42,375 nucleotides of DNA. It comes from Eoetvoesiella sp. (lineage in GTDB: Bacteria; Pseudomonadota; Gammaproteobacteria; Burkholderiales; Burkholderiaceae_B). The notes under the pieces are model-generated. The model had not been told where the DNA came from. It saw only the letters and a program-made list of their open reading frames with translations, and did not search any database. The stretch is taken from NCBI GenBank assembly GCA_036567205.1, contig DATCVA010000035.1:1-42375 (forward strand), given 5' to 3'. How positions within the stretch are numbered: position 1 is the first letter of the stretch; each line of letters starts with the position of its first letter. The position numbers and the translations under genes are program-made. Shown here piece after piece: positions 4,199 through 41,219 of the stretch.

Positions 4199-5197
4199 TT
4201 ATTTTTTCATTAAGCCAAATGAATCAGCCAGTTCTTTGTAGAACTCAACGCGTTCTTTGACATAAGTGTCCAGCTCGGCGCCCGTTTTATTGAACGGGAA
4301 CAACCCTTGCTGTTTCTGTAATGCTGCGAACTTAGGGCTGGCCTGGGTGTTGTCAAATGCCTTGACCCACCAGTTGTATTGCTCGTCAGTGACTTTGGGC
4401 CCTACATAGAAACCACGGATAATAGGCCAGTCAATGTTATATCCTTGTTCTTTAGCAGTTGGAATATCGGCAAGCTTGCCAGGCAAGCGTTCGGTATTAA
4501 ACACAGCTAGCAAGCGAATCGGTGCGCCACCTTCAAGCATGGTGAACGCTTCCGCGGCGTCGCCCATATAAGCCTGAATATGTCCACCGCGTAACGCGGT
4601 TATAGCCTCGCCGCCGCCCTCAAATGCCACGAAACGCATTCTTTTGTAATCGACTCCGGCCGCTTTAGCAGTTAGTGCTGCTTTCATCCAGTCTTGACTG
4701 CCCACCGTGCCACCAGCGGCTAAAACGATTTTGCTCGGATTTTCCTTAAAAGCATCCATTAGCTCTTTAAGACTTTTATAGGGAGAGTCGTCGCGTACGA
4801 TAACAACGCCATAGTCAGCGCCAATGCCCGACAGCCAGCGCACGTCATTCACGTTGTATTTGCCAAATTTTCCCTGGGCCAGGTTCAATAACGAGCCACC
4901 CGAAAAAGCAATAATGGCGCCAGGTTCAGCTGGTTTTTGTGCAACAACATGGTTATAAGCTACAGCGCCAATACCACCGGGCATATAAACAATACGCATC
5001 GGCTCTTTAAGCTGCCCGGCTTGTTTCAAGGCTTCTTGCGCCAATCGGCATGTAAGATCAAAACCACCGCCGGGTTGGGCTGGAGCAATACATTCCGGAC
5101 GGCGGGGTTCTTCGGCAGCGGCGGTCGACATCGCCATCAAGGAACTTGCACTAAGCAAAACTCCGGCTATCAAGCCAGGAACAAGGGATTTTTTCAT
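4199..5197 (-). CDS. tctC: Tripartite tricarboxylate transporter periplasmic receptor TctC (Bug family)
   Basis: Signal peptide MKKSLVPGLIAGVLLSASSLMAMSTAAA, a Bug/TctC-like body, and GGAG 6 nt upstream of the ATG at 5197. The ORF track extends to 5275. Confidence 0.88.
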   Translation of the reverse strand: MKKSLVPGLIAGVLLSASSLMAMSTAAAEEPRRPECIAPAQPGGGFDLTCRLAQEALKQAGQLKEPMRIVYMPGGIGAVAYNHVVAQKPAEPGAIIAFSGGSLLNLAQGKFGKYNVNDVRWLSGIGADYGVVIVRDDSPYKSLKELMDAFKENPSKIVLAAGGTVGSQDWMKAALTAKAAGVDYKRMRFVAFEGGGEAITALRGGHIQAYMGDAAEAFTMLEGGAPIRLLAVFNTERLPGKLADIPTAKEQGYNIDWPIIRGFYVGPKVTDEQYNWWVKAFDNTQASPKFAALQKQQGLFPFNKTGAELDTYVKERVEFYKELADSFGLMKK

Positions 5198-5316
5198 TGT
5201 CATCTCCGATAAGAACATATACAGGTTGATACCCGTCTTTTTATTGCCTAAGCTTGGCAAGTTCATACCGTACAAAAATTAGCTTTCCAAACCCTTTCAA
5301 CTTGCTTGTTTTTTAT

Positions 5317-6756
5317 TTAAACCCTTGCTTTATCAGCAAAATCTAGGGTAAATACCAGTGTAGCCCGGCACCCTTTTTGATCATTCAGCGTTTCCAGGGT
5401 GAACTCTCCTTGATGCTGCTTCATAATGGTTCTGACAATCGCCAGCCCCAAGCCCGCTCCTGTTGTATTTTTGCCTGCTGCCCCTCGTCGAAACCGGATG
5501 CCCGCTTTTTCAATGTCGGCAGGAGTCATGCCCGGACCATTATCTTCAACAATCAAATAAGCATTTGTGCCTTGCTTGTATGACCTCAACGTAACAATAC
5601 CGCCTACAGGCGTATAACGAATTGCGTTATCCACCAAATTAATAATGGCCTCGCGTATTAACCATTCGAAGCCGTCTATGCGAACAGGCAAGTCCGGACC
5701 TTCAAAACCAAAATCCAGTTGCTTGGTACGTGCAACCGGATACATATCCTTCAATATGCCGTGTGCCAGCGCCGTTAAATCTATTTTCTCCAGACTTTGA
5801 GTCATTTCCAATGGAGAGCCTTCCCTGGCTCGAGCCAGGGACAACATTTGATTGGTAGTGCGAACCGCCCGATCCAACCCCTCGCGCATTGCCTGCAACG
5901 CCGAGTGAATTTCCTCAGGATCGTCTTCCCGCAAGGCATAACCCAATTGGGCTCGCAATACTGAAAAAGGCGTACGCAATTGGTGAGAGGCATCATTCAA
6001 AAACTGGCGTTGCATTCGTGCCTGTTTTGCATAACGCGCCATATGGCTGTTGACGGCAGCCACCAAAGGCTGAACTTCAGATGGTATGTCTTTATCCTCT
6101 ACCGGCCGCAAATCGTCAAAACGCCGTCCCGCAAGGTCGTTATGTAAACGCGTTAGCGGCCGGACAGCAAAAAGTACGCCAAGCACAACGATCAAAATAA
6201 CCAGTCCCACTACAACGACGTCACGCTCTATGGAACGCAGCAACATCGAATGAATAAATTGTTCACGCGTATCGAAATCTTCGGCCACTTGAACAATTAC
6301 ACGACCGCCAATCTCTTTGTTCAAAGGAGGATTCATGGGCCGCGCCAGTGCAGCAATACGAATGGATTGCCCAAGATAAATCGCGTTATAAAACTGCGGT
6401 ACCCCTGAAATTAGCGGAGCGCTTGGCAATGGAAGTTCCTGATTGCCAATTTCAGCCAGTCCGTCTTCAGTCAAGACCCGAAAATAAACACGTTCATTGG
6501 CCGTCAGTTCAAAAAACTCAAGCAGAAGATACGGTTGTTCAAGTGATAAACCACCGCTGGCTGTGGAAATATTATGGTCAATCGAGCGCAGCGCTCCGGC
6601 CAATGAACGATCGTAGGCAATATTGACTTGTGTACGTAGCTGATGGTTTGAAATCCATAAAGCAATTACCAAAATAACAATAAGGGCCGGGATTATGGAC
6701 CACAATAAGATCGATTTCAGACTGCTTGACCAAGAGTAAAAACGCCTAATTTTCAC
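5317..6756 (-). CDS. tctE: Sensor histidine kinase TctE
   Basis: 479 aa with two TM segments, H-box SHQLRTPFSVL and an ATPase domain (DNAIRYT, GLGLAIV). It overlaps tctD by 11 nt. Confidence 0.88.
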   Translation of the reverse strand: MKIRRFYSWSSSLKSILLWSIIPALIVILVIALWISNHQLRTQVNIAYDRSLAGALRSIDHNISTASGGLSLEQPYLLLEFFELTANERVYFRVLTEDGLAEIGNQELPLPSAPLISGVPQFYNAIYLGQSIRIAALARPMNPPLNKEIGGRVIVQVAEDFDTREQFIHSMLLRSIERDVVVVGLVILIVVLGVLFAVRPLTRLHNDLAGRRFDDLRPVEDKDIPSEVQPLVAAVNSHMARYAKQARMQRQFLNDASHQLRTPFSVLRAQLGYALREDDPEEIHSALQAMREGLDRAVRTTNQMLSLARAREGSPLEMTQSLEKIDLTALAHGILKDMYPVARTKQLDFGFEGPDLPVRIDGFEWLIREAIINLVDNAIRYTPVGGIVTLRSYKQGTNAYLIVEDNGPGMTPADIEKAGIRFRRGAAGKNTTGAGLGLAIVRTIMKQHQGEFTLETLNDQKGCRATLVFTLDFADKARV

Positions 6757-7423
6757 TCATTGGCTCCAAACAATAGCCCATCCCCCTTAAGGTAACAATT
6801 TGGGTGCCGGTATCGACCAGTTTTTTACGAAGTCGATGCACAAGGACTTCGATGGCTTCAAGGTTTATATCTTTATCGTCAGAGTTGATTCGGTCCAGAA
6901 TTTGCTGCTTGGCAATCGGCTCGCCGCTTTTCTGGATAAGTACTTTTAAAACGGCATATTCTTTTGGGGATAAAGCCAATGGCTGCCCATCAACCAAAAA
7001 CCGTTGGGCAGCTGTGTCCAGGCTAAGAGCTCCCAAGGCTAATCGCGGATGTTCACGTCCACGGCTACGTCGTATTAATGCAATTAATCGTGCTTCCAGC
7101 TCTTCGACAACAAACGGTTTAGCAACAAAATCATCAGCCCCTTCATGTAAAGAATCGACTCGTTCCGATAATGAATCGCGAGCAGTTAAAACTAGTACCG
7201 GCGTTCGGTCATCACGTGCCCGTAGCCGGGTTAAAAACGTGTGTCCATTCATTCCAGGTAATCCTAAGTCCAAAATAACAGCATCGAATTCTTCAACTGC
7301 CAGTCGTCGTTCGGCAAGTTCGGCATCATCGGCCCAATCAACAATAAATCCACCATGACGTGCCAAGCTTCTTGATAGCCAATGGGCAAGTTCAATTTCA
7401 TCTTCAATCAGCAGTATACGCAT
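6746..7423 (-). CDS. tctD: OmpR-family response regulator TctD
   Basis: 225 aa. Receiver domain (MRILLIEDE...DLGLPGMNG) plus a winged-helix C-terminus (VHRLRKKL..TLRGMGY), directly upstream of tctE. Confidence 0.9.
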   Translation of the reverse strand: MRILLIEDEIELAHWLSRSLARHGGFIVDWADDAELAERRLAVEEFDAVILDLGLPGMNGHTFLTRLRARDDRTPVLVLTARDSLSERVDSLHEGADDFVAKPFVVEELEARLIALIRRSRGREHPRLALGALSLDTAAQRFLVDGQPLALSPKEYAVLKVLIQKSGEPIAKQQILDRINSDDKDINLEAIEVLVHRLRKKLVDTGTQIVTLRGMGYCLEPMSEN

Positions 7424-7515
7424 AGAAGGAGGAGCCTTGTTTGGGTGACTAAGAAGGAAATGTTTTATCTTTTCTTTCTTATCTTTATATATAAAGACTA
7501 ATAATAATGGGTGTC

Positions 7516-7524
7516 TGTGGATAA
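7516..7524 (-). promoter_or_regulatory. DnaA box, perfect 9/9 (TGTGGATAA on the + strand)
   Basis: Exact match to the reverse complement of TTATCCACA, immediately downstream of the AT-rich tract at about 7460-7510. Confidence 0.6.
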
Positions 7525-7695
7525 CTGGGACAACCTTTAATTACCTAATCATTTCATAGGATTAGGCAACTTTTTAAAACATCATAAGTTCTGTTTTTTT
7601 GAAGGATGAATTCTGGACAACTTTTAGGTTTGTTCTGAAAGTAGTAGTTGTACTTTATCAATCCACAAGCTGTGCACAACCTGCTTGCTTAGTAG

Positions 7696-7704
7696 TTATC
7701 CACA
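7696..7704 (+). promoter_or_regulatory. DnaA box, perfect 9/9 (TTATCCACA)
   Basis: Exact consensus, inverted relative to the box at 7516-7524, with a start-to-start offset of 180 bp. Confidence 0.6.
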
Positions 7705-8276
7705 GGTGGAAATATTGTAACTAACTGAAAGGCTGACGCGTAAATTTATTGAAGCTTGAGTTTTGGCAGCGAGTTGCACAGCAGCGGGGCTGAATCACAC
7801 CCTGAAATCGAAAATACTTTCAAAAAAGAGTTATTAGAAATGATCGAAAAAGCACGCTAGAACCCTTTAGAAGGGCAAGGAACAGATTTTTAGCCGTGTG
7901 GCGGCAGGATGGGCTTGGTTTCGACTTCAAAAGGTCGGAAATCGCTTGAATCGTTCTGCTGCGGTTTTGTTATGACTACTCGGAAAAAATTCTGTAATTT
8001 TCTTTTATGGGGTAGATAAGGAAAGTTTTGAACGAGTTTTTACGTTGCATGTATCTACAGATTCGTAAAGTTTGAGCCTGGCATCTATCTTGAATACAGG
8101 CGTTTGCTTCCTGTTCAATTTGTTTAACGCTTCCCTAGCAATTTTCTTGTAAGAAAAATTAATTTCGAGCTACTTGAATCGTTCAACAGAAGTATGGGCC
8201 AAGTTTGTTTTTAGCCGTTACTGCTTTATGTTGTTTATCTTTATTATATATATAAAGACTAATAATAATGGGTGTC

Positions 8277-8285
8277 TGTGGATAA
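8277..8285 (-). promoter_or_regulatory. DnaA box, perfect 9/9 (TGTGGATAA on the + strand)
   Basis: Exact match, preceded by the AT-rich tract at 8235-8270. Confidence 0.6.
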
Positions 8286-8456
8286 GTGGCATAAGTACCA
8301 ATAGTTCAATCTTTTCATAAACTTAAAACAGTTTTTTTGCCGGCATAAACTCTGTTTTTAAGAAGGATGGATTCTGTACAACTTTTAGCTATGGAACAAA
8401 CCTCTGACTTGTCCTTGTTTGTTCCACAGCCTGTGCACAATGCCGCTTCATAGTAG

Positions 8457-8465
8457 TTATCCACC
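8457..8465 (+). promoter_or_regulatory. DnaA box, 8/9 (TTATCCACC)
   Basis: One mismatch at the last position, 180 bp from the box at 8277. Confidence 0.45.
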
Positions 8466-8472
8466 GCTCAAT

Positions 8473-8546: not shown

Positions 8547-9596
8547 TCAGCAGGTTTTTACTATTTCCCCGGAGTCGAAAACCAGCTGGTTTTCTGGCCA
8601 TTGCAGCGCAGCCAACTTAAATCGCGAGGCTTCGGAACGGCTAACTTTGCGATCACGCCAGCGCGCACCGACTGAAAAATCCACACAAAAGACATTGCGA
8701 TGTTTGCCATGCCATGCGGTGGGTTCAATGTTTTGAAATAATTGCGTATAGCGCGGCATGTTTTCTTTTTTCTGGGGGGTAAACATTCGCCAGTAATGGC
8801 CGATGATGACAGGAATTGCATCGTCGTAATCGTCCCACCAATTTGTGCGGTCTGAAAAACGCCATCGATTGCCTGCAAAGAACGGAGTAGTGGCTTGTTG
8901 CTCTACCCCGGAGGTCAATACTTTCAAGGGGTTCACCATCTGTTGCATGGCTTCGTATTCGGCAATGGCGTGAAGAAAAGGAGGTGGATTTTTTTCATCT
9001 TCGAGCTCGTCGGCCCAACGCTGTTTTTCAGCCAGATAGCGCTGATATAGTCCGGAAGCTTCAGCGGAAGACTGAGCAATGTAGTCCCATACTTTGTATT
9101 GTTCGACAATGGTGCCCACTGGTATGGCGCTTACAGCGGCAATGGCTGCCGGAGTCCAGGCCGCATGTACTACCCGGATATCGTCACGAACCAAAGCAAC
9201 GGGTTGCCGGCGTAAAAAGTCCCTGATGCTTTTGCGTTCAGTGGGTGGGGTACGTCGAAAGGGCGCGTAGTTTTTAAGGTCTTGTTCCAGACGTTCGTCA
9301 AAAAACCATCCTGATCCGTCTTTAATGTCGTCGATCAGTAAGTTAAGTTCATGATTGCCTAAAATCGTATAGGCGTTGCCTTGTTCAACTAGTGATTGGA
9401 CAAGGCGAACAACGCCATGGCTATCGGGTCCCCGGTCCACCAGGTCGCCCACAAAAACCAGTTTTCGATTTTGTGGATGTCGACCGTTGCTGTCGTATTC
9501 CAGATGCCTTAATAAGGAATGCAAAGCGGCTAATTCGCCATGGATATCGCCAATAATATCGAGCGGGTTGTCGGGAAGGGGTTTGACTAAATGCAT
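8547..9596 (-). CDS. PPP-family metallophosphoesterase (ApaH/PrpA-like Ser/Thr phosphatase or diadenosine tetraphosphatase family) with a large internal insertion
   Basis: Motifs GDIHG, GDLVDRGPDS and GNHE, plus a distal IIGHYW. The ATG at 9596 (MHLVKPL) is preferred over the TTG at 9626. Confidence 0.8.
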   Translation of the reverse strand: MHLVKPLPDNPLDIIGDIHGELAALHSLLRHLEYDSNGRHPQNRKLVFVGDLVDRGPDSHGVVRLVQSLVEQGNAYTILGNHELNLLIDDIKDGSGWFFDERLEQDLKNYAPFRRTPPTERKSIRDFLRRQPVALVRDDIRVVHAAWTPAAIAAVSAIPVGTIVEQYKVWDYIAQSSAEASGLYQRYLAEKQRWADELEDEKNPPPFLHAIAEYEAMQQMVNPLKVLTSGVEQQATTPFFAGNRWRFSDRTNWWDDYDDAIPVIIGHYWRMFTPQKKENMPRYTQLFQNIEPTAWHGKHRNVFCVDFSVGARWRDRKVSRSEASRFKLAALQWPENQLVFDSGEIVKTC

Positions 9597-9832
9597 GTGC
9601 TTTATAAAAACGTAAACAGTGGGCAATTAACTTTGGAGTGCAACCGACTCCGTGCCTGGTTTTCCTTTATACCAAAGTATTTGTTACATGCTCCGGGTTT
9701 TACATTAGCGGTTATTAATTTATTAGCGTTATATCTGTTCGGCGGCGAGGCGCATTGTCATAACCGCTTCGGTTGGCAGCCTTGTGGTTTGTGGATTTAA
9801 TTATTTAAACACTGCGTGCTGTTAGTCGTGTG

Positions 9833-11852: not shown

Positions 11853-13568
11853 TCAGAATAAAAAGTAGCGTTGCGCCATAGGCAGGATTTTGGCGGGTTC
11901 ACATGTCAACAACTTACCGTCAGCCATAACCTGATAGGTTTGCGGGTCGACAGTAATGTGCGGTAGCCAATTATTAAGCACCATGTCTTTTTTGCCTATG
12001 GTGCGGCAACCGTGAATGGTTTCAAGGGTTTTGATCAGACCCAGTTCGTGTACTTTCGGGTTGTCCATGGCGGCCTGGGACAAAAACGTAAGCGACGTTT
12101 TCAGGGCCCTGCCGAAACCGGCATACATGGGACGCGAATGAACCGGTTGGGGCGTGGCAATTGACGCGCCTGGGTCGCCGACCGTAGCCGAGGCAATCAT
12201 TCCGCCTTTAAGGACCATGCTGGCTTTTATGCCAAAAAAAGCGGGCTTCCAGATGACGATATCAGCCAGCTTACCGACTTCTATCGACCCTACTTTATGA
12301 GCAATGCCGTGCGTGATGGCCGGGTTAATGGTGTATTTGGCAATATAGCGCTTAATGCGATGATTATCGGCCCGTGCGCTGTCGCCTTCAAGGGCGCCTT
12401 GTTGCGCTTTCATTTTATCGGCGGTTTGCCAGGTACGCAGCACGACTTCACCTACACGTCCCATGGCCTGGGAGTCGGAACTCATAATTGAAAATGCGCC
12501 CAGATCGTGCAGAATATCTTCAGCCGCAATGGTTTCACGGCGGATGCGGCTTTCAGCAAAAGCAAGATCTTCGGCGATGGACGAGTCCAGATGGTGGCAA
12601 ACCATCAGCATATCCAGGTGCTCGTCGATAGTGTTAGTAGTAAAAGGCATGGTCGGATTGGTGGAAGCGGGCAGAACATTGGGCATACCGGCCGCCCGGA
12701 TAATGTCTGGGGCGTGGCCGCCTCCTGCTCCTTCCGTATGAAACGAATGGATAGTGCGGCCTTTAAATGCCTTGAAGGTGTCTTCGACGAAACCCGATTC
12801 ATTTAGAGTGTCGCTGTGAATAGCGACCTGGATGTCCATCTCGTCGGCAACGCTCAAGCACGAGTCGATGGCGGCAGGTGTAGCGCCCCAGTCTTCATGC
12901 AACTTTAGACCAATGGCTCCTGCAGCTACTTGCTCGATAAGCGGGCCGTGAACGCTGACGTTACCTTTACCCAGTAAACCGATATTTATGGGAAAGGCGT
13001 CTAATGCCGCAAGCATGGAATGGATGTGCCACGGACCTGAGGTGCAGGTTGTTGCGAGCGAACCGGTAGCCGGACCGGTGCCGCCGCCGATCATGGTGGT
13101 TGTGCCGGTAGCCAGGGCTTCTTCGATTTGATCCGGGCAAATAAAGTGCACGTGCGTATCGATTGCGCCAGCAGTGATGATCAGGCCTTCACCTGCAATG
13201 ACTTCGGTAGCCGGGCCCACCACAATAGTGACGCCGGGCTGGATATCTGGATTTCCAGCTTTGCCGATGCCTGAAATCAAGCCGCTTTTAATACCGATGT
13301 CGGCTTTAATGATGCCGGTGACGGCATCAATAATAACGGCATTGGTAATAACGGTATCTACGCAGTCGGCGCTTAAACGCTGACTTTGGCCCATGCCATC
13401 GCGGATCACTTTACCACCGCCAAATTTCACTTCCTCACCGTAGATGGTGTGATCTTTTTCTATTTCCGCCAACAACTGAGTATCGGCAAGCCGGATGCGG
13501 TCGCCAATACCATTAATGCAGGTAGGCCCGAACATTTCTACATAGGCACGCCGTGAAATTGCAACCAT
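11853..13568 (-). CDS. ureC: Urease alpha subunit UreC
   Basis: 571 aa with the hallmark motifs MVCHHLD and [12 protein letters not shown]. The ATG overlaps the ureB stop by 1 nt. Confidence 0.97.
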
Positions 13569-21139: not shown

Positions 21140-21238
21140 CAAGGAGAAGCCCCCGACACTGTATAGCAACCCCTTGGGATGGCACATATTGCATCCCGCC
21201 GTTTGATTAAGAACAGAAAATTAATAGAGGAGACTTTT

Positions 21239-22237
21239 ATGAACCATCGTAAATCTTTGAAAGGGTTGCGCGCGACTCTTATGGCCGTGGCATTGGGCGT
21301 AGTGGGTGTGCAACCTGTCTGTGCGCAGGCGGCGCCAGCGGACTGGCCGAATAAGCCCTTGAAGCTTATTGTCAGCTTCCCGCCCGGGGGCGTTACAGAC
21401 ACGATCGCCCGCGCCCTGCAGCCTCGTTTGTCCGAGGGTTTGGGGCAGCCGGTCGTTATCGAAAACCGTGGTGCGGCTGGCGGAACCTTGGCCGAAGGCA
21501 CACTTGCCCGATCCTCCCCTGATGGGTACACCATGATGCTGACGGCGGACGGTGTTGCGGCGAACCCGCATTTACATCCCAATTTGCCTTACGACACGTT
21601 CAAGGATCTGTTGCCTGTGAGTCTATTGGTAAGGATACCGCTAGTCATGCTGGTTAATCCGTCGGTTCCGGCCAACACGGTTAAGGATTTTGTTGAGTAT
21701 GCCCGTGTTAACTCCAGCATGGTTAGTTATGCCAGTCCTGGCAGCGGTACGAGCAATCACTTGTTTTTCGAAGTGTTCAAGGACATGGCTAAGCTGGACA
21801 TTCAACATGTGCCCTACAAAGGGGGAAGTCCGGCGATGTCTGACCTGATGGGGGGGCATGTACAGGCATTGCTGATCACCAGCACTGTCGCAGCGCCACA
21901 GCTGCCAGGTGGAAAAATCAAGGCACTGGCTGTTACCAGCAGCGAGCGGTCGGCACAGATGCCTAATGTACCGACCTTTATCGAAGCGGGGTATCCCGAC
22001 TTTAAACCCCATCAATGGACCGGACTTTTTCTGCCCGCAGGTACTCCACCCGCCATTGTGGAGCGTATCCGCACCGAGTTTGATAAAGCCATGAATGCGC
22101 CTGAAGTGGTGACGCGTTTGCGCGATCTGGGGGCCGAACCTGTGATGAATACGCAAAAAGAATTTACCGAACTGTTGCAAAGGGATCATGCCGCCTTGGG
22201 CAAATTGATCAAAAGCCGTAATATCTCGGCGCAGTAA
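21239..22237 (+). CDS. Bug-family (TctC-like) periplasmic solute-binding protein
   Basis: Signal peptide MNHRKSLKGLRATLMAVALGVVGVQPVCAQA, then WPNKPLKLIVSFPPGG, the typical Bug N-terminus. GGAG lies upstream of the ATG at 21239. Confidence 0.88.
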   Translation: MNHRKSLKGLRATLMAVALGVVGVQPVCAQAAPADWPNKPLKLIVSFPPGGVTDTIARALQPRLSEGLGQPVVIENRGAAGGTLAEGTLARSSPDGYTMMLTADGVAANPHLHPNLPYDTFKDLLPVSLLVRIPLVMLVNPSVPANTVKDFVEYARVNSSMVSYASPGSGTSNHLFFEVFKDMAKLDIQHVPYKGGSPAMSDLMGGHVQALLITSTVAAPQLPGGKIKALAVTSSERSAQMPNVPTFIEAGYPDFKPHQWTGLFLPAGTPPAIVERIRTEFDKAMNAPEVVTRLRDLGAEPVMNTQKEFTELLQRDHAALGKLIKSRNISAQ

Positions 22238-26058: not shown

Positions 26059-27351
26059 TTATTTGCATTGAGGGATTGCGCGCGTTATGGCGTTCGCTAC
26101 GGTTAGTAAACGCGCATCTTGACCAAAACCTCCAATCAGTTGTGCTCCCAGGGGAAGTCCCGCCGGACCAAGGTCAATCGGGAATGACACCGAAGGCAGA
26201 TGCAGTAAAGTCCACAGTGCGCCGAATCGGGGATCCCCAGCATTAGTTAAGCCCAACTCAGCCTCTCCTGCGGCAGCGGGGTACAACACCGCGTCATTAT
26301 CCTGAAACAGCGATTGAGCCTGAAAACGAGCACGGTTCAGTTGCAATTGCATTGATATGTATTCGTCCAGCTGAATATCTTCGCCTGCCTTCAAGCGTGC
26401 CTGTAATCGCGGACTTAGCCGGTCGCCATGATTCAAGCGTTCATGAGCCAGTGCTTGCCGAGCCTCGTACATAAATAGACGAGGCTGAATGGCGATCACA
26501 GCTTCAAGCTCGGATGGAAGCCAGATATGTTTGACTGAGACACCGGCTGCTTCCAGGTGTTGAATCATGCGCTCAATAGCGTGGACGGTTTCGGGCTTGG
26601 CGTAGTCCCATTGCCGCGACATACACACGGCGATGCGTGGCCTCGCCAGCGATTGATGCACCGTTTTGGCGCCGTGCAAACCCAAGGAAAAGAAGGCGGC
26701 ATCTTCTACGTTCCGGGTGATGAGTCCAATGGTATCCTGGGACGGACTCAGTGCTTTAGCGCCGGCTGTCGATATGAGATTAAAACTGGGTTTGTAGCCG
26801 ATCACGCCGCAATAGACGGCCGGTCGGATAATTGAACCGGTCGTTTGGGTGCCAAAAGCCACAGGAACCATAAAATCCGCCACAGCTGCGGCAGATCCGC
26901 TGGAGGATCCTCCGGGTGTGTGCTCCAGCCGTAAGGGATTACGGGCATTGCTGGGAGTTTGCGTGGCAAATTCCCCGGTTGCCACTTTACCCAATAAGAT
27001 AGCCCCTCGGCTTTTTGCTACTGCTACACACGCTGCATCAGCTTCGGGTTGAAACCCTTGATAAATTGGGGAACCGTATTCGGTAGGATAGTCCGCTGTG
27101 TTAATGATGTCCTTCACCGCAAACGGAACACCACGTAATAGTCCCGCATTTGAATTTGCCTGGACTTGTTCCGCGCTGGCTAACGCCCGCGCAGCATCAC
27201 AAGTGACAAAAGCATGGACGAGGGAGTTGCGTTCTTCGATGCGCTCGAGGCACGCTCGAACCAACGCTACACTCGTTATGTCTCCGCGCTCAATAGCGTC
27301 TGCTGCTTGTACCGCACCTAATTGATTTAACGGTTTTTCAATGCTGCTCAT
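26059..27351 (-). CDS. Amidase-signature family amidase (GatA-like)
   Basis: 430 aa. Signature GGSSSGSAAAVA with an upstream catalytic Lys context (FAVKDII). Confidence 0.88.
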   Translation of the reverse strand: MSSIEKPLNQLGAVQAADAIERGDITSVALVRACLERIEERNSLVHAFVTCDAARALASAEQVQANSNAGLLRGVPFAVKDIINTADYPTEYGSPIYQGFQPEADAACVAVAKSRGAILLGKVATGEFATQTPSNARNPLRLEHTPGGSSSGSAAAVADFMVPVAFGTQTTGSIIRPAVYCGVIGYKPSFNLISTAGAKALSPSQDTIGLITRNVEDAAFFSLGLHGAKTVHQSLARPRIAVCMSRQWDYAKPETVHAIERMIQHLEAAGVSVKHIWLPSELEAVIAIQPRLFMYEARQALAHERLNHGDRLSPRLQARLKAGEDIQLDEYISMQLQLNRARFQAQSLFQDNDAVLYPAAAGEAELGLTNAGDPRFGALWTLLHLPSVSFPIDLGPAGLPLGAQLIGGFGQDARLLTVANAITRAIPQCK

Positions 27352-28334
27352 TCGACTTTAATTCCTGCATCTTTAATAACCTTGGCCCACTTGTCATGTT
27401 CGTCGTGAACAAACTTGGCGAAATCCGCGCTTGACCCGCCCGCGGGTTCGGCCCCTTGAGCCAAAAGTTGCTGTTTGACTTGCGGCATATCCAGTACTTT
27501 TCGGGTTTCGGCGTTAAGTTTTTCAATGATTGCAGGCTCTACTTTGGCGGGAGCGAATAAGCCGAACCACCCGTTGACTTCGTAGCTTGGCAACCCCGCC
27601 TGGGCCATGGTGGGCACTTCGGGCAGCAAGACGGACCGTTTGGATGACGTGACTGCAAGGGCGTGGAGTTTGCCGGACTTGACGTGGGGCAGGCACACAG
27701 GCAAATTACAAAACATGACTTGCACCCTTCCGGACAGCAAGTCCGCAAGCGCATCACTTCCGCCTTTGTACGGGACATGCAGCATATCGTGGTTAGTCAG
27801 CGATTTGAATAGCTCAGCTGCCAGGTGCATACTGCCACCGGTACCACCTGATGCGTAGGCATATTGTTTTTGCGGGAGTAGAGCAATAAGCTCTTTGACT
27901 GTCTTGGCGGGTATGTCGGGGTGTACCACCAATATATTAGCAACCGTAGCTACATTCGTAATCGGTGCAAAGTCGCGCAGGGGATCAAACTTGAGATTTT
28001 TGTACAAACTTGGATTTACTGCGTTGGTGCTGGTGGGGCCCAGTAATAGCGTATATCCATCTGCGGCCGCCGTAGCCACCTCGGCTGCACCAATATTCCC
28101 GCCGGCGCCCGCTTTATTTTGGACGATTACGCTCTGACCCAACGATTCCGTTAGTTGCTTCGCGACAATTCTTGCCAGCAGGTCCGTAACGCTACCAGCT
28201 CCGAACGGGACAACCAAATTTACAGCCCTTGAGGGGTACTCTTCCGCCTGTGTTGCCTGTGGCGCGACTATGGCTGTAAGCGCCATCATTGTGAGAGCTG
28301 TCGATAGTATGCGAGTTCTAATTGAAGTGCTCAT
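27348..28334 (-). CDS. Bug-family (TctC-like) periplasmic solute-binding protein
   Basis: Signal peptide ending AQAEEYPSRAVNLVVPFGAGS. GAGGA lies upstream of the ATG at 28334, and the stop overlaps the amidase start by 4 nt. Confidence 0.88.
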   Translation of the reverse strand: MSTSIRTRILSTALTMMALTAIVAPQATQAEEYPSRAVNLVVPFGAGSVTDLLARIVAKQLTESLGQSVIVQNKAGAGGNIGAAEVATAAADGYTLLLGPTSTNAVNPSLYKNLKFDPLRDFAPITNVATVANILVVHPDIPAKTVKELIALLPQKQYAYASGGTGGSMHLAAELFKSLTNHDMLHVPYKGGSDALADLLSGRVQVMFCNLPVCLPHVKSGKLHALAVTSSKRSVLLPEVPTMAQAGLPSYEVNGWFGLFAPAKVEPAIIEKLNAETRKVLDMPQVKQQLLAQGAEPAGGSSADFAKFVHDEHDKWAKVIKDAGIKVE

Positions 28335-28499
28335 TGATTTCCATTCCTCAGAATATATAGGTTGTTCTTTTTGCAAAAATATAAATGGCCGCCTGGTTTA
28401 TGTTCTTGTTTGAAAGTACTCTAAAGTCTATTAATTAAGATGTCTAATATCAATTCAACTATCAATTAGGTTATATTTAGACTTAATCTAATTCCGCGG

Positions 28500-31353: not shown

Positions 31354-31587
31354 CTAGTGACATGTGTGCTTCGAGTTCGGTACCGGATCACAACCACCCG
31401 GGGACCAGGGGTGGCAACGGGCAATACGCCACGCGGCCAGTCCCAAACCACGCAAAGGCCCATGCGTTTCGATAGCTTCGATAGCATAGGCAGAGCATGT
31501 TGGGGTAAAACGACAGCTTTGTCCCAGCCAGGGACTAAGAAAATATCGATAAAACCGGATAGGGGCGATAAGAATGGCTTTAATCAT
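31354..31587 (-). CDS. yidD: Membrane protein insertion efficiency factor YidD
   Basis: 77 aa with [29 protein letters not shown], the YidD hallmark. Confidence 0.93.
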
Positions 31588-31946
31588 CGCATTGCCCGCT
31601 GCAATAGAGCGTCTGCTTCGGTGCGTACGAGCTTTTTAAGCTCGGTGAGCGAGAAGGGGCCCACCTTGGAATGCAGCCGAAACACAAAGTCGCATTGCGG
31701 TAATTCGTGCCGTTTGGTTCGAAACGCTTCACGAATAACGCGTTTGATGGCGTTTCGGGTAACGGCTTTTGCGGCAAAACGCTTGGCAATGATTAGTCCC
31801 AATCGTGCCTGCGTCGCATCTGCCTGGACTTCGCGTGGTGTAGTTACAACAAACAAAGCCCCTCTGGCGATGCGTTTACCCTTAAGGGCAGAGGCATATT
31901 CCGAGGGGCGGTGCAAGCGCGCCGCTGGAGTGAGCGTGGCACGCAT
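31584..31946 (-). CDS. rnpA: Ribonuclease P protein component RnpA
   Basis: RnpA-like basic protein ([29 protein letters not shown]). The ATG at 31946 is preferred; an alternative TTG lies at 31961. Confidence 0.9.
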
Positions 31947-31999
31947 GGGCGTTGGCGCCAACAGACAACTAATTGGGGCGACAGCCTTTGCTGACCTGA

Positions 32000-32134
32000 C
32001 TAAACGGCCAGGCGCTTGCGACCCTTGGCACGGCGCGCGTTAATAACGGCGCGGCCACCGCGTGTTTTCATACGGACGCGAAAACCGTGGGTACGCTTGC
32101 GGCGAGTAACGGATGTTTGGAAAGTGCGTTTCAT
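32000..32134 (-). CDS. rpmH: 50S ribosomal protein L34
   Basis: Not in the ORF track because it is under 60 aa. My manual translation gives [44 protein letters not shown] followed by a stop. Confidence 0.93.
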
Positions 32135-32137
32135 GGA

Positions 32138-32146
32138 TTATCCAAA
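32138..32146 (+). promoter_or_regulatory. DnaA box, 8/9 (TTATCCAAA), in the rpmH-dnaA spacer
   Basis: One mismatch to TTATCCACA, adjacent to the rpmH start. Confidence 0.35.
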
Positions 32147-32284
32147 TAAAAGAGCTACTAGAAACGCGCCTTGAAATAGGTGTTCCTAGTGTTAGAAATT
32201 CTTGTAAAGCCCACTATTTCATCAAACTATTCCCGATTAGTCAAATGGTTAGCAGTAATACCAAGCGTTATTACTATCTACCCT

Positions 32285-32293
32285 TGTGGATAA
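32285..32293 (-). promoter_or_regulatory. DnaA box, perfect 9/9 (TGTGGATAA on + strand), about 47 nt upstream of the dnaA ATG
   Basis: Exact consensus flanked by direct CTACCC repeats. This position is typical for dnaA autoregulation. Confidence 0.6.
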
Positions 32294-32339
32294 CTACCCG
32301 CGCGACAGGGTAGAATCGAGGTTTACAAAAGTGGTGGAC

Positions 32340-33761
32340 ATGAAAGATTTTTGGCAGACTTGCGTCCAGCGCCTGGAGCAAGAACTCCCCCCGCAGCAAA
32401 TTAGTGCCTGGATACGGCCATTGGTTCCCCTTGCGTTCGATGATGCGCAGGCGGTGCTACGGGTGTCTGCGCCTAATCGTTTTAAATTAGACTGGGTACG
32501 CAAGAACTTCTCGCGTCAAATCGAAGATCTTGCCTCCGAATGGTACGAGCGCCCGGTACAAGTCGCATTTGAATTGGCCGCGGCCTCTGGGGCGACGCAT
32601 CGCGCAGCGGCGCCCGTGCAGGCTAACGGGCAGTCGGCATCAACATTTGATGCAAGCACAACATCGCGTGCCAGCACCCAGGCGGCGACACCGGTTGCGG
32701 CGGCGGTCAATGCGGCAGCGGCTGAAATCATGCACGATCGCTCGCGCCTTAATACCGACCTTACGTTCGATAACTTCGTTACGGGAAAGGCGAATCAACT
32801 GGCACGCGCAGCAGCATTGCAAGTGGCTGAAAACCCCGGTGTGTCATATAACCCGCTGTTTTTATATGGCGGCGTGGGACTGGGTAAAACTCACTTGATT
32901 CACGCCATCGGCAATGCACTGCTTGCCAACGGTACCGGTACGCGCGTGCGCTATGTGCACGCCGACCAATACGTATCCGATGTGGTCAAGGCCTATCAGC
33001 GCAAGGCATTTGATGAGTTCAAGCGTTACTACCATTCACTCGACTTATTGCTGATCGACGATATTCAATTTTTTGCCGGCAAGAATCGTACGCAAGAAGA
33101 ATTCTTTTATGCGTTCGAGGCGATGGTCGCACAGCGCAAACAAATCATTATTACGTCCGATACCTATCCAAAGGAATTGGCTAATATCGATAGCCGGCTA
33201 ATTTCGCGTTTCGATTCGGGCTTAACGGTAGCCATCGAGCCTCCCGAACTTGAGATGCGCGTGGCTATCTTGCTGCGCAAAGCCGAGACCGAGGGCGTGA
33301 CCATGCCCGAAGAAGTCGCCTTCTTCATTGCCAAGCATCTGCGCAGTAATGTGCGCGAGCTGGAAGGGGCATTGCGCAAGGTGTCTGCGTACGCACGTTT
33401 TCATGGCCGCGAAGTGCTTACTGTTGAAGTCTGCAAAGATGCGCTGAAAGACTTGCTGTCGGTATCGAACGGACAAATCACGGTTGAAAATATCCAGAAA
33501 ACCGTGGCTGATTTTTATAAGATCAAAGTCGCTGACATGTATTCGAAGCGGCGTCCTGCCAATATTGCATTACCCCGTCAGATCGCCATGTATCTGGCCA
33601 AAGAGCTAACCCAAAAAAGCTTGCCCGAAATCGGCGATCTGTTTGGTGGCCGCGACCACACAACCGTGCTTCACGCAGTACGTAAAATCTCCGATGCCCG
33701 GTCCAAGCAAACCGAACTTAACCATTCTTTACACGTATTAGAACAAACCTTAAAAGGATAA
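32340..33761 (+). CDS. dnaA: Chromosomal replication initiator protein DnaA
   Basis: [29 protein letters not shown]-terminus, Walker [19 protein letters not shown] and C-terminal DNA-binding HTTVLHA. The ATG at 32340 is preferred over the GTG at 32286, which lies inside the DnaA box. Confidence 0.96.
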
Positions 33762-33763
33762 CC

Positions 33764-34873
33764 ATGCAACTCGTACAAACGACTCGCGATGCATTGTTGA
33801 AGCCGTTATCAACGGTGGCGGGAATTGTCGAACGACGCAACACACTGCCTATATTGGCAAATATTTTGCTGCGCAAAGAAGGCAACAACGTTGCATTTAT
33901 CGCAACCGACCTCGAAGTACAGATCACCACACATGCCGAATTCGGCGTGGGCGACGACAACGAGTCCATCACGGTTGCCGCACGTAAATTGCTCGACATT
34001 CTGCGTGCCTTGCCCGAGTCGGGCGACGTTAAGCTGGGCTTGGCCAGTGCCAAGTTATCCGTTCAATCCGGTAAAAGCCGGTTCGCATTGCAAACCATGG
34101 GCGCGGCCGAATTTCCGACCCTGTCGCAACCCGAAAAATGGGATGTATCGCTGACATTGCCGCAAAAGACGCTTAAGCACCTGTTCAATATGGTGCATTT
34201 TGCGATGGCGCAGCAAGACATCCGTTACTACTTGAATGGCCTGCTTTTTGTTTTTGAGCCAGGGTTTGTGCGCGCTGTGGCGACCGACGGTCACCGCCTG
34301 GCGCATAGCGGTACGGCTGTTGACGGCATTACTCAAAAGCACGACGTTATCGTGCCCCGTAAAACGGTATTGGAAATGCAGCGTTTGCTTGCCGATACCG
34401 ACGAGCCCGTGTCCATCGACGTGGCTCCGGGTCAGATTCGGTTTCAGTTCGGCGATGTCGAGCTCGTTTCCAAATTGGTCGAGGGTAAATTCCCCGACTT
34501 TACGCGTGTCATTCCCACCAACTACACACGCCACTTTTCAGTAAGTCGCGAACTGCTGCAAGGCAGCTTGCAGCGTGCCGCTATTCTTACGACCGACAAA
34601 CTTAAAGGGGTTCGCATTCAGCTGTCCGATCATCAGCTAAAAATTTCCTCGTCCAATGCCGAACAAGAAGAAGCACAAGAAGAAATTGATATCGACTACA
34701 GTCATGAACCACTGGATGTTGGCTTTAACGTCAGCTATTTGCTGGATGTTCTGGCCAATGTCAAAACCGAGACTCTTCAATGGTCTGTTCAGCCCGATGT
34801 GAATGCGTCGGCATTAATCACCTCGCCCGAGGATGATCAGTTCAAGTATGTCGTTATGCCAATGCGCATCTAA
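33764..34873 (+). CDS. dnaN: DNA polymerase III beta sliding clamp DnaN
   Basis: 369 aa. Starts 2 nt after the dnaA stop, with a typical clamp N-terminus (LLKPLSTVAGIVERRNTLPILANILL). Confidence 0.95.
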   Translation: MQLVQTTRDALLKPLSTVAGIVERRNTLPILANILLRKEGNNVAFIATDLEVQITTHAEFGVGDDNESITVAARKLLDILRALPESGDVKLGLASAKLSVQSGKSRFALQTMGAAEFPTLSQPEKWDVSLTLPQKTLKHLFNMVHFAMAQQDIRYYLNGLLFVFEPGFVRAVATDGHRLAHSGTAVDGITQKHDVIVPRKTVLEMQRLLADTDEPVSIDVAPGQIRFQFGDVELVSKLVEGKFPDFTRVIPTNYTRHFSVSRELLQGSLQRAAILTTDKLKGVRIQLSDHQLKISSSNAEQEEAQEEIDIDYSHEPLDVGFNVSYLLDVLANVKTETLQWSVQPDVNASALITSPEDDQFKYVVMPMRI

Positions 34874-34951
34874 GCGCGCTGGAGTCAACGTCTAGATTCG
34901 GCCGGCGCCGCGGTGGCGCCTGCCGTTTCAACAGCCGCAAGGCTTATATAA

Positions 34952-37417
<2,466 letters not shown>

Positions 37418-37451
37418 TTTTTGTTGTAGGTGAAGGCATAAGCTGAGAATC

Positions 37452-37492
37452 CGAGGCCCATAAGTTGAGAAGCTTGTGGGCCTCGTGCTTTT
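37452..37492 (+). terminator. Rho-independent terminator of gyrB
   Basis: CGAGGCCCA / TGGGCCTCG arms, extendable to about 13 bp, followed by TGCTTTT. Confidence 0.75.
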
Positions 37493-37530
37493 GATCAACT
37501 TTGTTCGCTATTGCCGGTAGCTATTGAGCA

Positions 37531-37680
37531 TCATTGAACAGACAGCTGAAGGTGCTTGCCCGCTCGCGTCAGCATGTCCACCAATGCATCAATGGTGAAT
37601 TTAATGGTCTTTCTGTTGATCAGGTCGGAAATTCTCGGACGTGTTGTCCCAAGAATTTCCGCTTCTTCCGTTTCGAACCT
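37531..37680 (-). pseudogene. Relic of an XRE-family (HTH_37/HigA-like antitoxin type) gene; only the C-terminal HTH half remains
   Basis: My manual translation gives RFETEEAEILGTTRPRISDLINRKTIKFTIDALVDMLTRAGKHLQLSVQ followed by a stop. It is bounded upstream by an in-frame TGA (37681-37683) with no usable start codon. The N-terminal half is absent, and the hdeD stop is only 34 nt away. Confidence 0.45.
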
Positions 37681-37716
37681 TCAGTGTATGCGCGTAGATA
37701 TGCCAGGTTCGTCTGC

Positions 37717-38313
37717 TTATTTCACCAAGTCGATTTCCTGGCGTCGCAACGCCATCCCCAGCATCATGAGCATCAGGCCTTGGAAGATCAGGTCGATGGC
37801 AAGCAGCAACCCGAGCACCCATACGCTGTTGCCGGGCCAGCCTGCTGCGATGGCAAGACCCGCTAGCAGTGTCACAATGCCAGACAGGGCCAGCCACTGC
37901 CAGCCTGGCTGTGCCCGGTTTTGAAACCATATCCACAGACGGAATGCTCCTGATCCAATCAGCGTTGCGCCCAGAAGCAACGTGAGTACCGCAGCGCCTG
38001 TCAAGGGGTTATAGAACGCAAGTAACCCCGCCCCCAGGTACAAGATGCCGCTGATCGTCCAGAACAGGAAGCTGGTCCATCCTTTTACACGCCATGCGTT
38101 GATCAGCATGCCGACACCCGCAAACAGCATAAGGGTTCCAACGAAAATCACGCTGACAAGGGTCGCCGTCAGAACATGATAAGAGGCGGCAAAGCCAACG
38201 ATAAGAAGGAACAGACCAAGCCCCAAAAACCATTTCCATTTTGCGCGCACCGCATCAAGGGGATGTGTATCGCGTGCGTAAGAGTGCTTATCGTCAGGAG
38301 TGAGTTCGCTCAT
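37717..38313 (-). CDS. hdeD: HdeD-family (DUF308) membrane protein
   Basis: 198 aa with six predicted TM helices and the repeated G-rich helix pattern typical of HdeD/DUF308. Confidence 0.7.
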   Translation of the reverse strand: MSELTPDDKHSYARDTHPLDAVRAKWKWFLGLGLFLLIVGFAASYHVLTATLVSVIFVGTLMLFAGVGMLINAWRVKGWTSFLFWTISGILYLGAGLLAFYNPLTGAAVLTLLLGATLIGSGAFRLWIWFQNRAQPGWQWLALSGIVTLLAGLAIAAGWPGNSVWVLGLLLAIDLIFQGLMLMMLGMALRRQEIDLVK

Positions 38314-38788
38314 GTTGGCCCTTTCTGTTTCGGTTTCAATCGGTTATCGACCATCCAGCCTAGGCACCACCTACGCGGAGGGCGTCTTATGTTGCTGATA
38401 GTACACGGCGAAGATGACTAAGTGCGAAGTGCGGCCATAACTTAGTGCTTGTTGAATATCATCGCCTCTGCCCGTTCATATGGTCTGCGAAACTCTATTG
38501 AACTGGACATTTCTATTCAGCAGATACCGAACATTTTCACGTTGCACCAATATAAAATTTTATCCCCTCTTGCCATCAAGCTCCAATTCATCGATAATTT
38601 TGCATATCTTTGTATACAAATATATTTCGCCGGATGTCTATCAAAAAATAACACTCAAGCCAACCTCGCCAAGCTTCACTGGGAAAACGGCGCCGGTAAT
38701 TTGATAAGCACCAAAGAAGCAATACTTATTTAATCTGCGGATAAAAGCCAGATATAGGCTTACACCGCTATACCCAAAGGAGATGGAG

Positions 38789-39763
38789 ATGAAGAAAGTT
38801 TCGACAGTCAAAGTGTTTTTAGGCGCCATAGCAATGGCGGCAAGTTCCCTGACTTTTGCCCAGCCGTATCCAAATCATGCGATTTCAATGATTACACCCT
38901 TTCCGCCCGGCGGTGCCGCTGACGTGGTGTTACGTTTGATCGCGGAACGCTTAACCGAGTCGTTCAAGTCCCCGGTGGTGGTAGAAAACAAAGGCGGTGC
39001 GGGGGGCGCTATTGGCACCGCGTTCGTGGCACGCGCCGCACCCGACGGCTATACCTTGCTGCTGACATCGTCCAGCACCATGTCCATCAACCCGCAGCTA
39101 CGGGCTCAGCCTCCCTATGACCCCTTCAAGGACTTTACGCCCATCGCTCTGGTGGGAACTTCGCCCAATGTGTTGGTGGTGAATTCATCCCTGCCGATCA
39201 ACTCGGTCAGCGACTTAATCGCCGCCGCCAAGAAGCAGCCTGGAGGACTAAATTTTGCCTCGAACGGTATCGGCACATTAAGCCACCTTACCGGCGAGCT
39301 ATTCGAGCAAACGGCGGATATTGAAATGTTGCACGTGCCCTATAAGGGCGCGGCGCCCGCAGTTGCCGACACTGCGGGTGGGCAAGTGGCCGCCTTGTTC
39401 GCCGCGTATGCCAGTGTAGCGCCCATGGTGGAATCCAAAAAACTGCGGGCGTTAGGCGTGACTAGTGCGAAACGAATCAGTGTCGCCCCCGATCTGCCAA
39501 CCATCGCCGAATCAGGCTTGTCAGGGTTCGAGTCCAACCAGTGGTGGGGTATTTGGGGGCCCGCCGGTCTGCCCGAATCCATTGTGTCCAAAATCAATAC
39601 GGAGGTGAACAAAGTCTTGCAAGACCCTGAAGTGAAGAAGCGCTTCGCCCAGGAATCCGTCGAGCTCACTGGCGGCACGCCCCAAGAACTCACCGATTAT
39701 CTGCGCACAGACTACGACAAATGGACCGCCGTCATTAAAGCAGCGGGGATCAAGGCCGAATAA
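38789..39763 (+). CDS. Bug-family (TctC-like) periplasmic solute-binding protein
   Basis: Signal peptide MKKVSTVKVFLGAIAMAASSLTFAQPYPNHAISMITPFPPGG. AGGAG lies 6 nt upstream of the ATG at 38789. Confidence 0.88.
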   Translation: MKKVSTVKVFLGAIAMAASSLTFAQPYPNHAISMITPFPPGGAADVVLRLIAERLTESFKSPVVVENKGGAGGAIGTAFVARAAPDGYTLLLTSSSTMSINPQLRAQPPYDPFKDFTPIALVGTSPNVLVVNSSLPINSVSDLIAAAKKQPGGLNFASNGIGTLSHLTGELFEQTADIEMLHVPYKGAAPAVADTAGGQVAALFAAYASVAPMVESKKLRALGVTSAKRISVAPDLPTIAESGLSGFESNQWWGIWGPAGLPESIVSKINTEVNKVLQDPEVKKRFAQESVELTGGTPQELTDYLRTDYDKWTAVIKAAGIKAE

Positions 39764-41190: not shown

Positions 41191-41219
41191 GACAAAATCA
41201 AAGTCAAAGGTCCAAAGCT

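Follow-up and report, generated by a model that had tools for sequence, protein, structure and literature searches.

How many origins of replication can a bacterial chromosome carry at one place? Natural departures from the one-origin rule are few, and the pairs known in Pseudomonas and predicted in Halomonadaceae are unrelated origins located at two fixed sites. The question is raised here by a contig of 42,375 nucleotides from Eoetvoesiella sp. (GenBank assembly GCA_036567205.1, contig DATCVA010000035.1), which was analysed at its full length and is called the window below. A 1.1-kb intergenic region of this window holds two modules of ~245 bp each, A and B, which a first-pass annotation made from the sequence alone had described as an oriC-like unit present twice. 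The position of the cumulative GC-skew minimum, the candidate DNA unwinding elements (DUEs), the DnaA-trios, the spacing of the DnaA boxes and the conservation in the bacterial family all support this description, and the locus is probably the chromosomal origin, a dual origin in which two complete oriC units, paralogues of each other, follow one another in the same orientation. In contrast to the known pairs, it is here one origin unit that has been duplicated, with copies conserved column by column.

The duplication itself is evident from the ungapped match between positions 7486-7704 and 8247-8465, which are offset by exactly 761 bp and identical at 155 of 219 positions (154 by the hand count of the first-pass annotation). 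The next-best placement of this 219-mer within the window gave 83/219, and the background of the window-wide ungapped comparison had a mean of 54 with a standard deviation of 6.6. The pair is thereby ~15 standard deviations above chance expectation and is not a chance match. The identity is as blocky as it had been described, with computed values of 39/39, 30/58, 39/45, 15/33 and 32/44 for the successive blocks, all equal to the earlier count except the last (31/44). The gap-free alignment of the two copies was reproduced by MAFFT, which put no gap between A and B, and a repeat search of the window independently recovered the same three blocks, each at a spacing of 761 bp. The similarity was not confined to the 39-bp identical block, an outcome that the first-pass annotation had allowed for, as further blocks match outside it. 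The limits first drawn around the modules hold for the ungapped match, but the similarity runs further left, to about 7461 and 8222 (171/244). The contig originates from a soil metagenome, and the unitigs from three sequencing runs were interrupted only at the shared 39-bp block. An assembly artefact was rejected, since a 782-bp unitig (7495-8276) spans A through the spacer into B and links the two at an even depth of ~10-12x.

Each module displays the parts of a complete oriC unit in the same order (Table 1): an AT-rich DUE candidate, six NAN trios, a short spacer, a reverse DnaA box of the R1 type, an array of weaker box-like sites and a forward box of the R4 type. The reverse consensus TGTGNAWAA, with a DUE some two helical turns ahead of it, was used as the DnaA box criterion for an origin. 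Both DUE candidates stop 8 bp short of a perfect reverse box, TGTGGATAA in each module, and by the same nearest-neighbour measure the DUE of E. coli oriC has a free energy of -40.7 kcal/mol. A basal unwinding system (BUS) has been defined by at least three trios within 16 bp of a DnaA box (Pelliciari 2021, PMC8287927), and the trios of both modules are of this kind. The only paired perfect boxes and the best DUEs of the window are those of the modules.

The interior sites were mapped on the columns of an alignment of 57 copies of the module from related genomes, because anchoring on R1 alone smeared the distant sites. Relative to R1, the box-like sites conserved in this family are located at +96 in reverse orientation and at +132, +143, +154 and +180 in forward orientation. 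The R1 site is kept in all 57 copies, with a mean of 7.8 matches at the 8 specified positions, and the sites at +143 and +154 match at 6/8 positions or more in 81% and 89% of the copies, respectively. The palindrome TGTGCACA pointed out in the first-pass annotation sits inside the forward box-like site at +154, CTGTGCACA. A conserved TCA....TT element is found downstream of R1, and its family consensus TATCAATAACTTA is compatible with the consensus WATCAANNNNTTR of the integration host factor (IHF), although the fit is loose in the window.

Table 1. Features of the putative dual origin and of its flanks in the window. Free energies (dG) are nearest-neighbour values; offsets are relative to R1.
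Feature	Position	Strand	Remarks
OmpR-type response regulator gene	6746..7423	-	Pfam Response_reg and Trans_reg_C; left flank, transcribed away from the DUE of A
Module A, complete oriC-type unit (DUE, trios, R1, DnaA-box array, R4)	7456..7710	+	nhmmer 173.8 bits against the 57-copy family profile
DUE candidate of A, AT-rich	7469..7508	.	dG -38.1 kcal/mol, tied second least stable 40-mer of the 42-kb window
Six consecutive NAN DnaA-trios of A	7490..7507	+	TAT AAA GAC TAA TAA TAA, then 8-bp G+C-rich spacer TGGGTGTC
R1-type DnaA box of A	7516..7524	-	TGTGGATAA on + strand; perfect match
Central conserved block of A	7583..7627	+	39/45 identical to B; holds reverse box-like TCTGGACAA (7612-7620, offset +96)
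Forward DnaA-box-like sites of A	7659..7678	+	CAATCCACA (7659-7667), CTGTGCACA (7670-7678); offsets +143, +154
R4-type DnaA box of A	7696..7704	+	TTATCCACA; perfect, 180 bp from R1
Spacer between A and B	about 7705-8221 (listed feature 7711..8216)		~515 bp; unrelated sequence, not conserved
Module B, second complete oriC-type unit	8217..8471	+	Orientation as A; nhmmer 187.2 bits against the 57-copy family profile
DUE candidate of B	8230..8269	.	dG -36.9 kcal/mol, least stable 40-mer of the whole window
Six NAN DnaA-trios of B	8251..8268	+	Then 8-bp spacer
R1-type DnaA box of B	8277..8285	-	Perfect match
Central conserved block of B	8344..8388	+	Holds TCTGTACAA (8373-8381)
Forward box-like sites of B	8420..8439	+	TGTTCCACA (8420-8428), CTGTGCACA (8431-8439)
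R4-type DnaA box of B	8457..8465	+	TTATCCACC; one mismatch, 180 bp from its own R1
Metallophosphoesterase (MPE) gene	8547..9626	-	Pfam Metallophos; conserved neighbour of the origin module across Alcaligenaceae
dnaA	32340..33761	+	Pfam DnaA_N, Bac_DnaA and Bac_DnaA_C; ATG at 32340 read from the sequence; dnaN and gyrB next

The cumulative GC-skew of the window has its minimum at position 7409, the left edge of A, within a plateau from 7271 to 7726. Genes on the minus strand have skews of -0.08 to -0.21 to the left of the locus and of +0.03 to +0.09 to the right, and since genes of the same strand thus differ in sign across the locus, gene orientation is not the cause of the switch. According to Weigel (bioRxiv 10.1101/2025.08.05.668638), the left neighbour of all confirmed origins is transcribed counter-clockwise, away from the DUE. 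Module A has such a neighbour in the response regulator gene, which starts 38 bp from it, and in relatives with a second copy to the right of the MPE gene this feature is supplied by the MPE gene itself.

The distribution of the module was studied in 80 loci around MPE homologues of species-representative genomes, covering 10 kb on either side; Bordetella and Achromobacter were outside this sample. The MPE homologues place the host, an uncultured bacterium, in the Alcaligenaceae, near Pusillimonas, Paralcaligenes and Candidimonas. By the module profile, ~44 of the 80 loci have the module beside the MPE gene, where the skew switches. All of these are Alcaligenaceae-like, from the genera Pusillimonas, Pollutimonas, Candidimonas, Eoetvoesiella, Paralcaligenes, Castellaniella and Alcaligenes, and the module was found at none of the Comamonadaceae MPE loci in the sample. 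At 42 of 43 module-bearing loci from other genomes, the skew changed from negative values left of the module to positive values right of it, the single exception having only 1.2 kb of right flank, whereas the MPE loci without a module (Comamonadaceae) showed no such pattern. Hardly any indels were seen in the 57-copy alignment. The distance from R1 to R4 was 178-182 bp in 55 of the 57 copies, with a mode of 180 bp (32 copies), and the best-conserved columns were those of the trio/spacer/R1 block, the central block, the forward boxes and R4. This fits well with the idea, put forward in the first-pass annotation, of several binding sites that must keep their helical phasing. In the searchable literature we found no description of an oriC from Alcaligenaceae or Bordetella, nor of a tandem or duplicated oriC; one single-oriC prediction by Ori-Finder exists for Kerstersia.

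The conservation in the family also explains why A and B resemble each other in blocks. With the information of each column taken from the other 55 copies, A and B were identical at 66 of 69 high-information columns (96%), at 54 of 61 intermediate columns and at 56 of 125 low-information columns (45%), so that the mosaic of kept blocks and drifted spacers noted earlier follows the constraint map of the family. The 39 bp that are identical in A and B, with the trios, the spacer and R1, correspond to the stretch of the family module that is conserved best, and the columns of the central block are likewise of high information. In a clade of nine genomes with two copies, the two copy classes share their conservation profile (r = 0.80), with a mean information content of 1.22 versus 1.29 bits. 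Across all two-copy loci, the DUE candidates of both classes were within the top 0.1% of their locus, and R1 was perfect in 76% and 86% of the two classes. These comparisons indicate that purifying selection acts on both copies and at the same columns.

Two copies were found in about half of the module-bearing loci, always as direct repeats, in several geometries. Tandem pairs on the left side of the MPE gene are seen in the window (761 bp), in its closest relative L082 (GCA_001482255.1; 565 bp) and in Castellaniella (316-440 bp). The copies flank the MPE gene at a distance of ~1.3 kb in Alcaligenes, flank it together with one further gene at 2.0-2.65 kb in the Pollutimonas/Candidimonas clade, and are 4.7-5.4 kb apart in L016 and L084. 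In single-copy loci such as L002, L003, L017, L024 and L084, a state that holds within the 10 kb on either side and the contig ends and from which more distant copies could escape, the module is located between the 3′ ends of a convergent aminotransferase gene (+) and the MPE gene (-).

The pair in the window is not a recent, strain-specific duplication, a possibility that the first-pass annotation had allowed for. Modules A and B are 69% identical and each other's nearest relatives. The MPE of L082 is 85% identical to that of the window, and its tandem pair is orthologous to A and B: B and the second copy of L082 are 73% identical and A and the first copy 68%, compared with 62-64% for the cross pairs. 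The fourfold degenerate sites of the adjoining MPE genes are only 38% identical between the window and L082 and are thus saturated, and the spacer of the window (517 bp) has no similarity to that of L082 (314 bp), with which it could not be aligned. Orthologous copies that persist despite saturated fourfold sites show that the duplication took place before the two species split and that selection has maintained both modules ever since. Within Alcaligenes, identity is 51-53% between left and right copies and 76-80% between positional orthologues across four species, and the copies cluster with the corresponding copies of lineage L029 in a neighbour-joining tree, which indicates a much older duplication there. 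A tree of this kind on 250 bp is too weak for counting duplication events, and gene conversion is possible.

The Pollutimonas/Candidimonas clade (L005, L006, L008, L010, L011, L013, L018) has a conserved minus-strand open reading frame (ORF) of ~225 amino acids between the left module and the MPE gene, and the origin units there enclose two genes, this ORF and the MPE gene. A degenerate third copy in the stretch from the left module to MPE was considered in this clade and rejected, as the interval is the conserved ORF.

Read as a dual origin, the locus would work as follows. DnaA would bind the high-affinity end boxes, R1 in reverse and R4 in forward orientation, 180 bp apart, and would then occupy the weaker box-like sites between them, which form two arrays facing each other. 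From R1, DnaA would spread across the 8-bp spacer onto the six NAN trios, and the engagement of the trios would open the adjoining AT-rich unwinding element and allow the helicase to be loaded. Given that both units have long been kept by purifying selection, we infer that both are still competent for DnaA assembly and unwinding. Either unit could start a round of replication, and the other would be passively copied; with less than 1 kb between them, a unit that fires would have the other copied immediately, and the pair would in effect be one initiation locus. The second unit may add robustness, DnaA-binding capacity or both. With a pair of units, opening in good time would become more likely, and the number of high-affinity DnaA sites at the origin would double. 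Of this picture, the anatomy, the position at the skew switch, the conservation across the family and the age and constraint of the two copies are observations, whereas DnaA binding, unwinding and the activity of both copies are inferred.

Several points weigh against this reading. One position of the R4 box of B is mismatched, and two are mismatched in its orthologue in L082. Across the two-copy loci, R4 is perfect in 86% of the first copies versus 57% of the second copies, so second copies can decay, and the distant second copies of L016 and L084 are without R4 altogether. To the left of B there is only the non-coding spacer of ~515 bp, and no gene transcribed away from its DUE. A strict match to the IHF consensus occurs in 10-38% of the family copies and in neither module of the window (TTCATAGGATTA and TTCATAAACTTA). 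The stability of the DUEs is a nearest-neighbour free energy of 40-mers and not a superhelical (stress-induced duplex destabilisation, SIDD) calculation. To some extent, second copies do decay or become specialised, and a role other than firing for one of the two would also be consistent with selection on both.

The state of R4, its loss in the two distant second copies and the left flank of B are also what would be expected under a division of labour, in which one module fires and the other is a DnaA-binding regulator, similar to datA or DARS or titrating DnaA to set when initiation occurs, or a landing site from which DnaA is passed to the active unit. In all Alcaligenes, moreover, R1 of the left copy has one mismatch (TGTTGATAA) and the DUE/trio region of that copy has diverged. 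We find such a division rather unlikely. The DUE, the trios and the spacer are kept in both modules and would be superfluous in an element that merely binds DnaA, and the column-by-column constraint is alike in the two copy classes. To our knowledge, datA and DARS of E. coli have not been described with an unwinding element or with origin-like end boxes.

It is very unlikely that neither module is the origin and that both are DnaA-box clusters of another role, the true oriC being located upstream of mnmG or between rpmH and dnaA. Relatives do have parS sites and twin reverse DnaA boxes upstream of mnmG. In the single-copy genomes the left gene runs towards the DUE of the module, counter to the left-neighbour regularity of confirmed origins. 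However, in the window a 5.5-kb insertion parts the modules from the mnmG side, yet the skew minimum has stayed at their left edge, and it is the modules that hold the strongest DUEs and the paired perfect boxes. The rpmH-dnaA intergenic region (32135-32339, 205 bp) contains one perfect DnaA box in reverse orientation (32285-32293), with three NAN trios and a spacer of 7 bp ahead of it. This is the single strong box of the region, it lies 46 bp before the dnaA ATG, and the DUE is weak (-45.5 kcal/mol). From 8 to 32 kb the skew has strongly positive values, and it remains positive on either side of this region, which excludes a switch at dnaA. An origin at rpmH-dnaA was rejected on skew, DUE strength and box count, and the box there looks like a remnant or an autoregulatory site.

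That the modules are a pair of small RNA genes, a promoter cassette or a small mobile repeat with DnaA-box words by chance is hardly credible: the only point in favour is that they are repeats in an intergenic region, whereas their terminal boxes are the best conserved columns, RNAalifold found no consensus structure on either strand of the 57 copies, Rfam gave nothing in the intergenic region at the gathering threshold or at E<=1, and scans for sigma-70 promoters and terminators gave no matches, which speaks against the non-origin functions that the first-pass annotation had named as an alternative. The sequence was found in no RNA-seq run. A dispersed repeat or miniature inverted-repeat transposable element was likewise rejected, as the copies occur only at the skew switch beside the MPE gene and are never dispersed.

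The reading as a dual origin has its nearest known counterparts in Pseudomonas and Halomonadaceae. In P. aeruginosa, as summarised by Weigel (bioRxiv 10.1101/2025.08.05.668638, citing Yee & Smith 1990 and Jiang 2006), both oriC1 and oriC2 replicate plasmids and form pre-priming complexes, and dual origins have been predicted for Pseudomonadaceae as well as for 138 of 163 genomes of Halomonadaceae (bioRxiv 10.1101/2025.08.05.668638). These pairs occupy the fixed positions <rpmH.oriC1 and <mnmG.oriC2, 5 kb or 20-30 kb apart, and duplication was excluded by the author (bioRxiv 10.1101/2025.08.05.668638). Like them, the locus described here has two regions, each with a DUE, trios, a reverse R1 and a DnaA-box array, in the mnmG...rpmH/dnaA neighbourhood, and the state of one or two origins varies across the family. 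The right halves of the Pseudomonas and Halomonadaceae origins differ, whereas the units of the window are 69% paralogues within one intergenic region. The units of the Alcaligenaceae are moreover only 0.3-5.4 kb apart and flank one to several genes in relatives, their geometry shifts between lineages, and the host is betaproteobacterial. The first-pass annotation knew of no described chromosome origin with two complete, similarly oriented units ~530 bp apart, a remark that needs qualification: chromosomes with two complete origins have been described in P. aeruginosa and predicted in Pseudomonadaceae and Halomonadaceae, but the members of such a pair are separated by 5-30 kb and did not arise from one another by duplication. 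The paralogous pair is a variation on the known dual-origin state. A survey (Gao 2015) lists other putative double origins, none of them of the paralogous-unit kind.

In architecture, each unit resembles E. coli oriC. A reverse R1 beside the DUE and a forward R4 exactly 180 bp away close the unit in both (E. coli R1 at L001:502 and R4 at L001:682, NC_000913; modules at 7516/7696 and 8277/8457), weak sites are reverse on the left and forward on the right, and the total is ~245 bp. However, a blastn search of module A against 5,426 complete E. coli genomes gave no match, and the interior was identical to E. coli oriC at only 51-57 of 171 positions against a background of 42.6 +/- 5.7. The modules contain no GATC site (0 in each, compared with 11 in E. 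coli oriC) and no GATCTnTTnTTTT 13-mer repeats, both of which belong to the Dam/SeqA control of E. coli. The right array is phased differently, at +132, +143 and +154 and then +180, and the flanking genes encode a response regulator and a metallophosphoesterase instead of mnmG-mioC. Given the lack of a blastn match, the near-background identity of the interior and the absence of GATC, the resemblance to E. coli is architectural only.

The bipartite origins of B. subtilis and H. pylori (PMC3479198; PMC4403523) also have two DnaA-box clusters at one locus. The gene between the parts is dnaA in those origins and MPE in many of the relatives studied here. In bipartite origins the DUE is found in one sub-region only and the parts are not copies of each other, whereas here each unit has its own trios, end boxes and DUE candidate, the two candidates being of equal quality. 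In engineered E. coli with an ectopic oriC, two like origins fire and the cells are viable, according to the summaries of Wang 2011 and Dimude 2018 in PMC4403523 and Weigel 2025. By the same summaries, those pairs are artificial, identical, ~1 Mb apart and carry a fitness cost; the pair described here is natural, 69% identical, less than 1 kb apart and evolutionarily stable.

A wider conclusion is put forward tentatively. Alcaligenaceae chromosomes may commonly fire from both paralogous oriC units, and the pairs may have arisen or been reshaped recurrently (in tandem at 316-761 bp, flanking a gene at 1.3-2.7 kb, or at 5 kb) and have been maintained by selection over tens of millions of years or longer. 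In that case, duplicating the origin would be an adaptive solution that recurs within a bacterial family and not a tolerated accident. Related genera with one-copy and two-copy states in several geometries provide a comparative and genetic system, in which the culturable Alcaligenes species represent the two-copy form flanking one gene. The questions opened concern the gain from a second origin (robustness, DnaA titration or timing), the minimal distance at which two origins work, and the duplication and decay of origins. A family-level model of the Alcaligenaceae origin also emerges, with an exact R1-R4 distance of 180 bp, trios and no GATC. Tools that predict a single origin would call the present locus one oriC.

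The trio/R1 block was over-represented in the metagenome from which the contig was assembled. In window 7436-7552, its word depth in runs X1-X3 was about 10 times that of the flanks (~100-126 versus 9-12), and loose ends matched the second origin copy of a Pollutimonas-type genome. The raised depth and these loose ends indicate that several Alcaligenaceae with this origin module coexist in the sample. The spacer between the modules in the window contained no ORF of 60 amino acids or more, only short non-conserved ones, and no promoter, terminator or Rfam match.

On the minus strand further left of the response regulator gene are the histidine kinase gene of the same operon and a Tct transporter. 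The segment 2045-7423 as a whole, with the TctCBA transporter and the histidine kinase/response regulator operon, lies between an aminotransferase gene and the origin. Since the aminotransferase gene directly adjoins the module in most relatives, the segment is a lineage-specific insertion at the origin. Of this insertion, at least the response regulator gene is also present in L082, whose contig stops there. In one relative, gidA-gidB-parA-parB was found a few kb to the left of the module. In the region upstream of mnmG (gidA) of L018 (14367-14420), L036 and L084, parS (TGTTTCACGTGAAACA) is located beside the twin reverse DnaA boxes (TGTGGATAActtTGTGGGTAA), and the sequence ACTAATGGCTC just ahead of these boxes resembles the trio/spacer of the module. 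This region is 2-2.6 kb from the left origin module in the relatives and lies beyond the left end of the window here.

To the right of the MPE gene is the urease operon, followed further right by mnmE, yidC-yidD-rnpA-rpmH and dnaA-dnaN-gyrB, with dnaA ~24 kb from the modules. The classical cluster of yidD-rnpA-rpmH and dnaA-dnaN-gyrB occupies 31354-37417. Positive from 8 to 32 kb, the skew is about zero or slightly negative from dnaA onwards (dnaA -0.009, dnaN -0.026, a DUF308 gene -0.076), and the cumulative curve flattens over 32000-42375, a segment that may be rearranged or recently acquired. An Rfam match to 5_ureB_sRNA (13118-13406, +, 94.5 bits) is antisense to the urease alpha-subunit gene (11853-13568, minus) and may be merely the conserved coding sequence that the Helicobacter antisense RNA overlaps. 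Four genes for periplasmic receptors of the TctC/Bug family were present in the 42 kb (4199-5275, 21179-22237, 27348-28376 and 38783-39763), which agrees with the large size that the Bug family is known to reach in Bordetella and other Alcaligenaceae.

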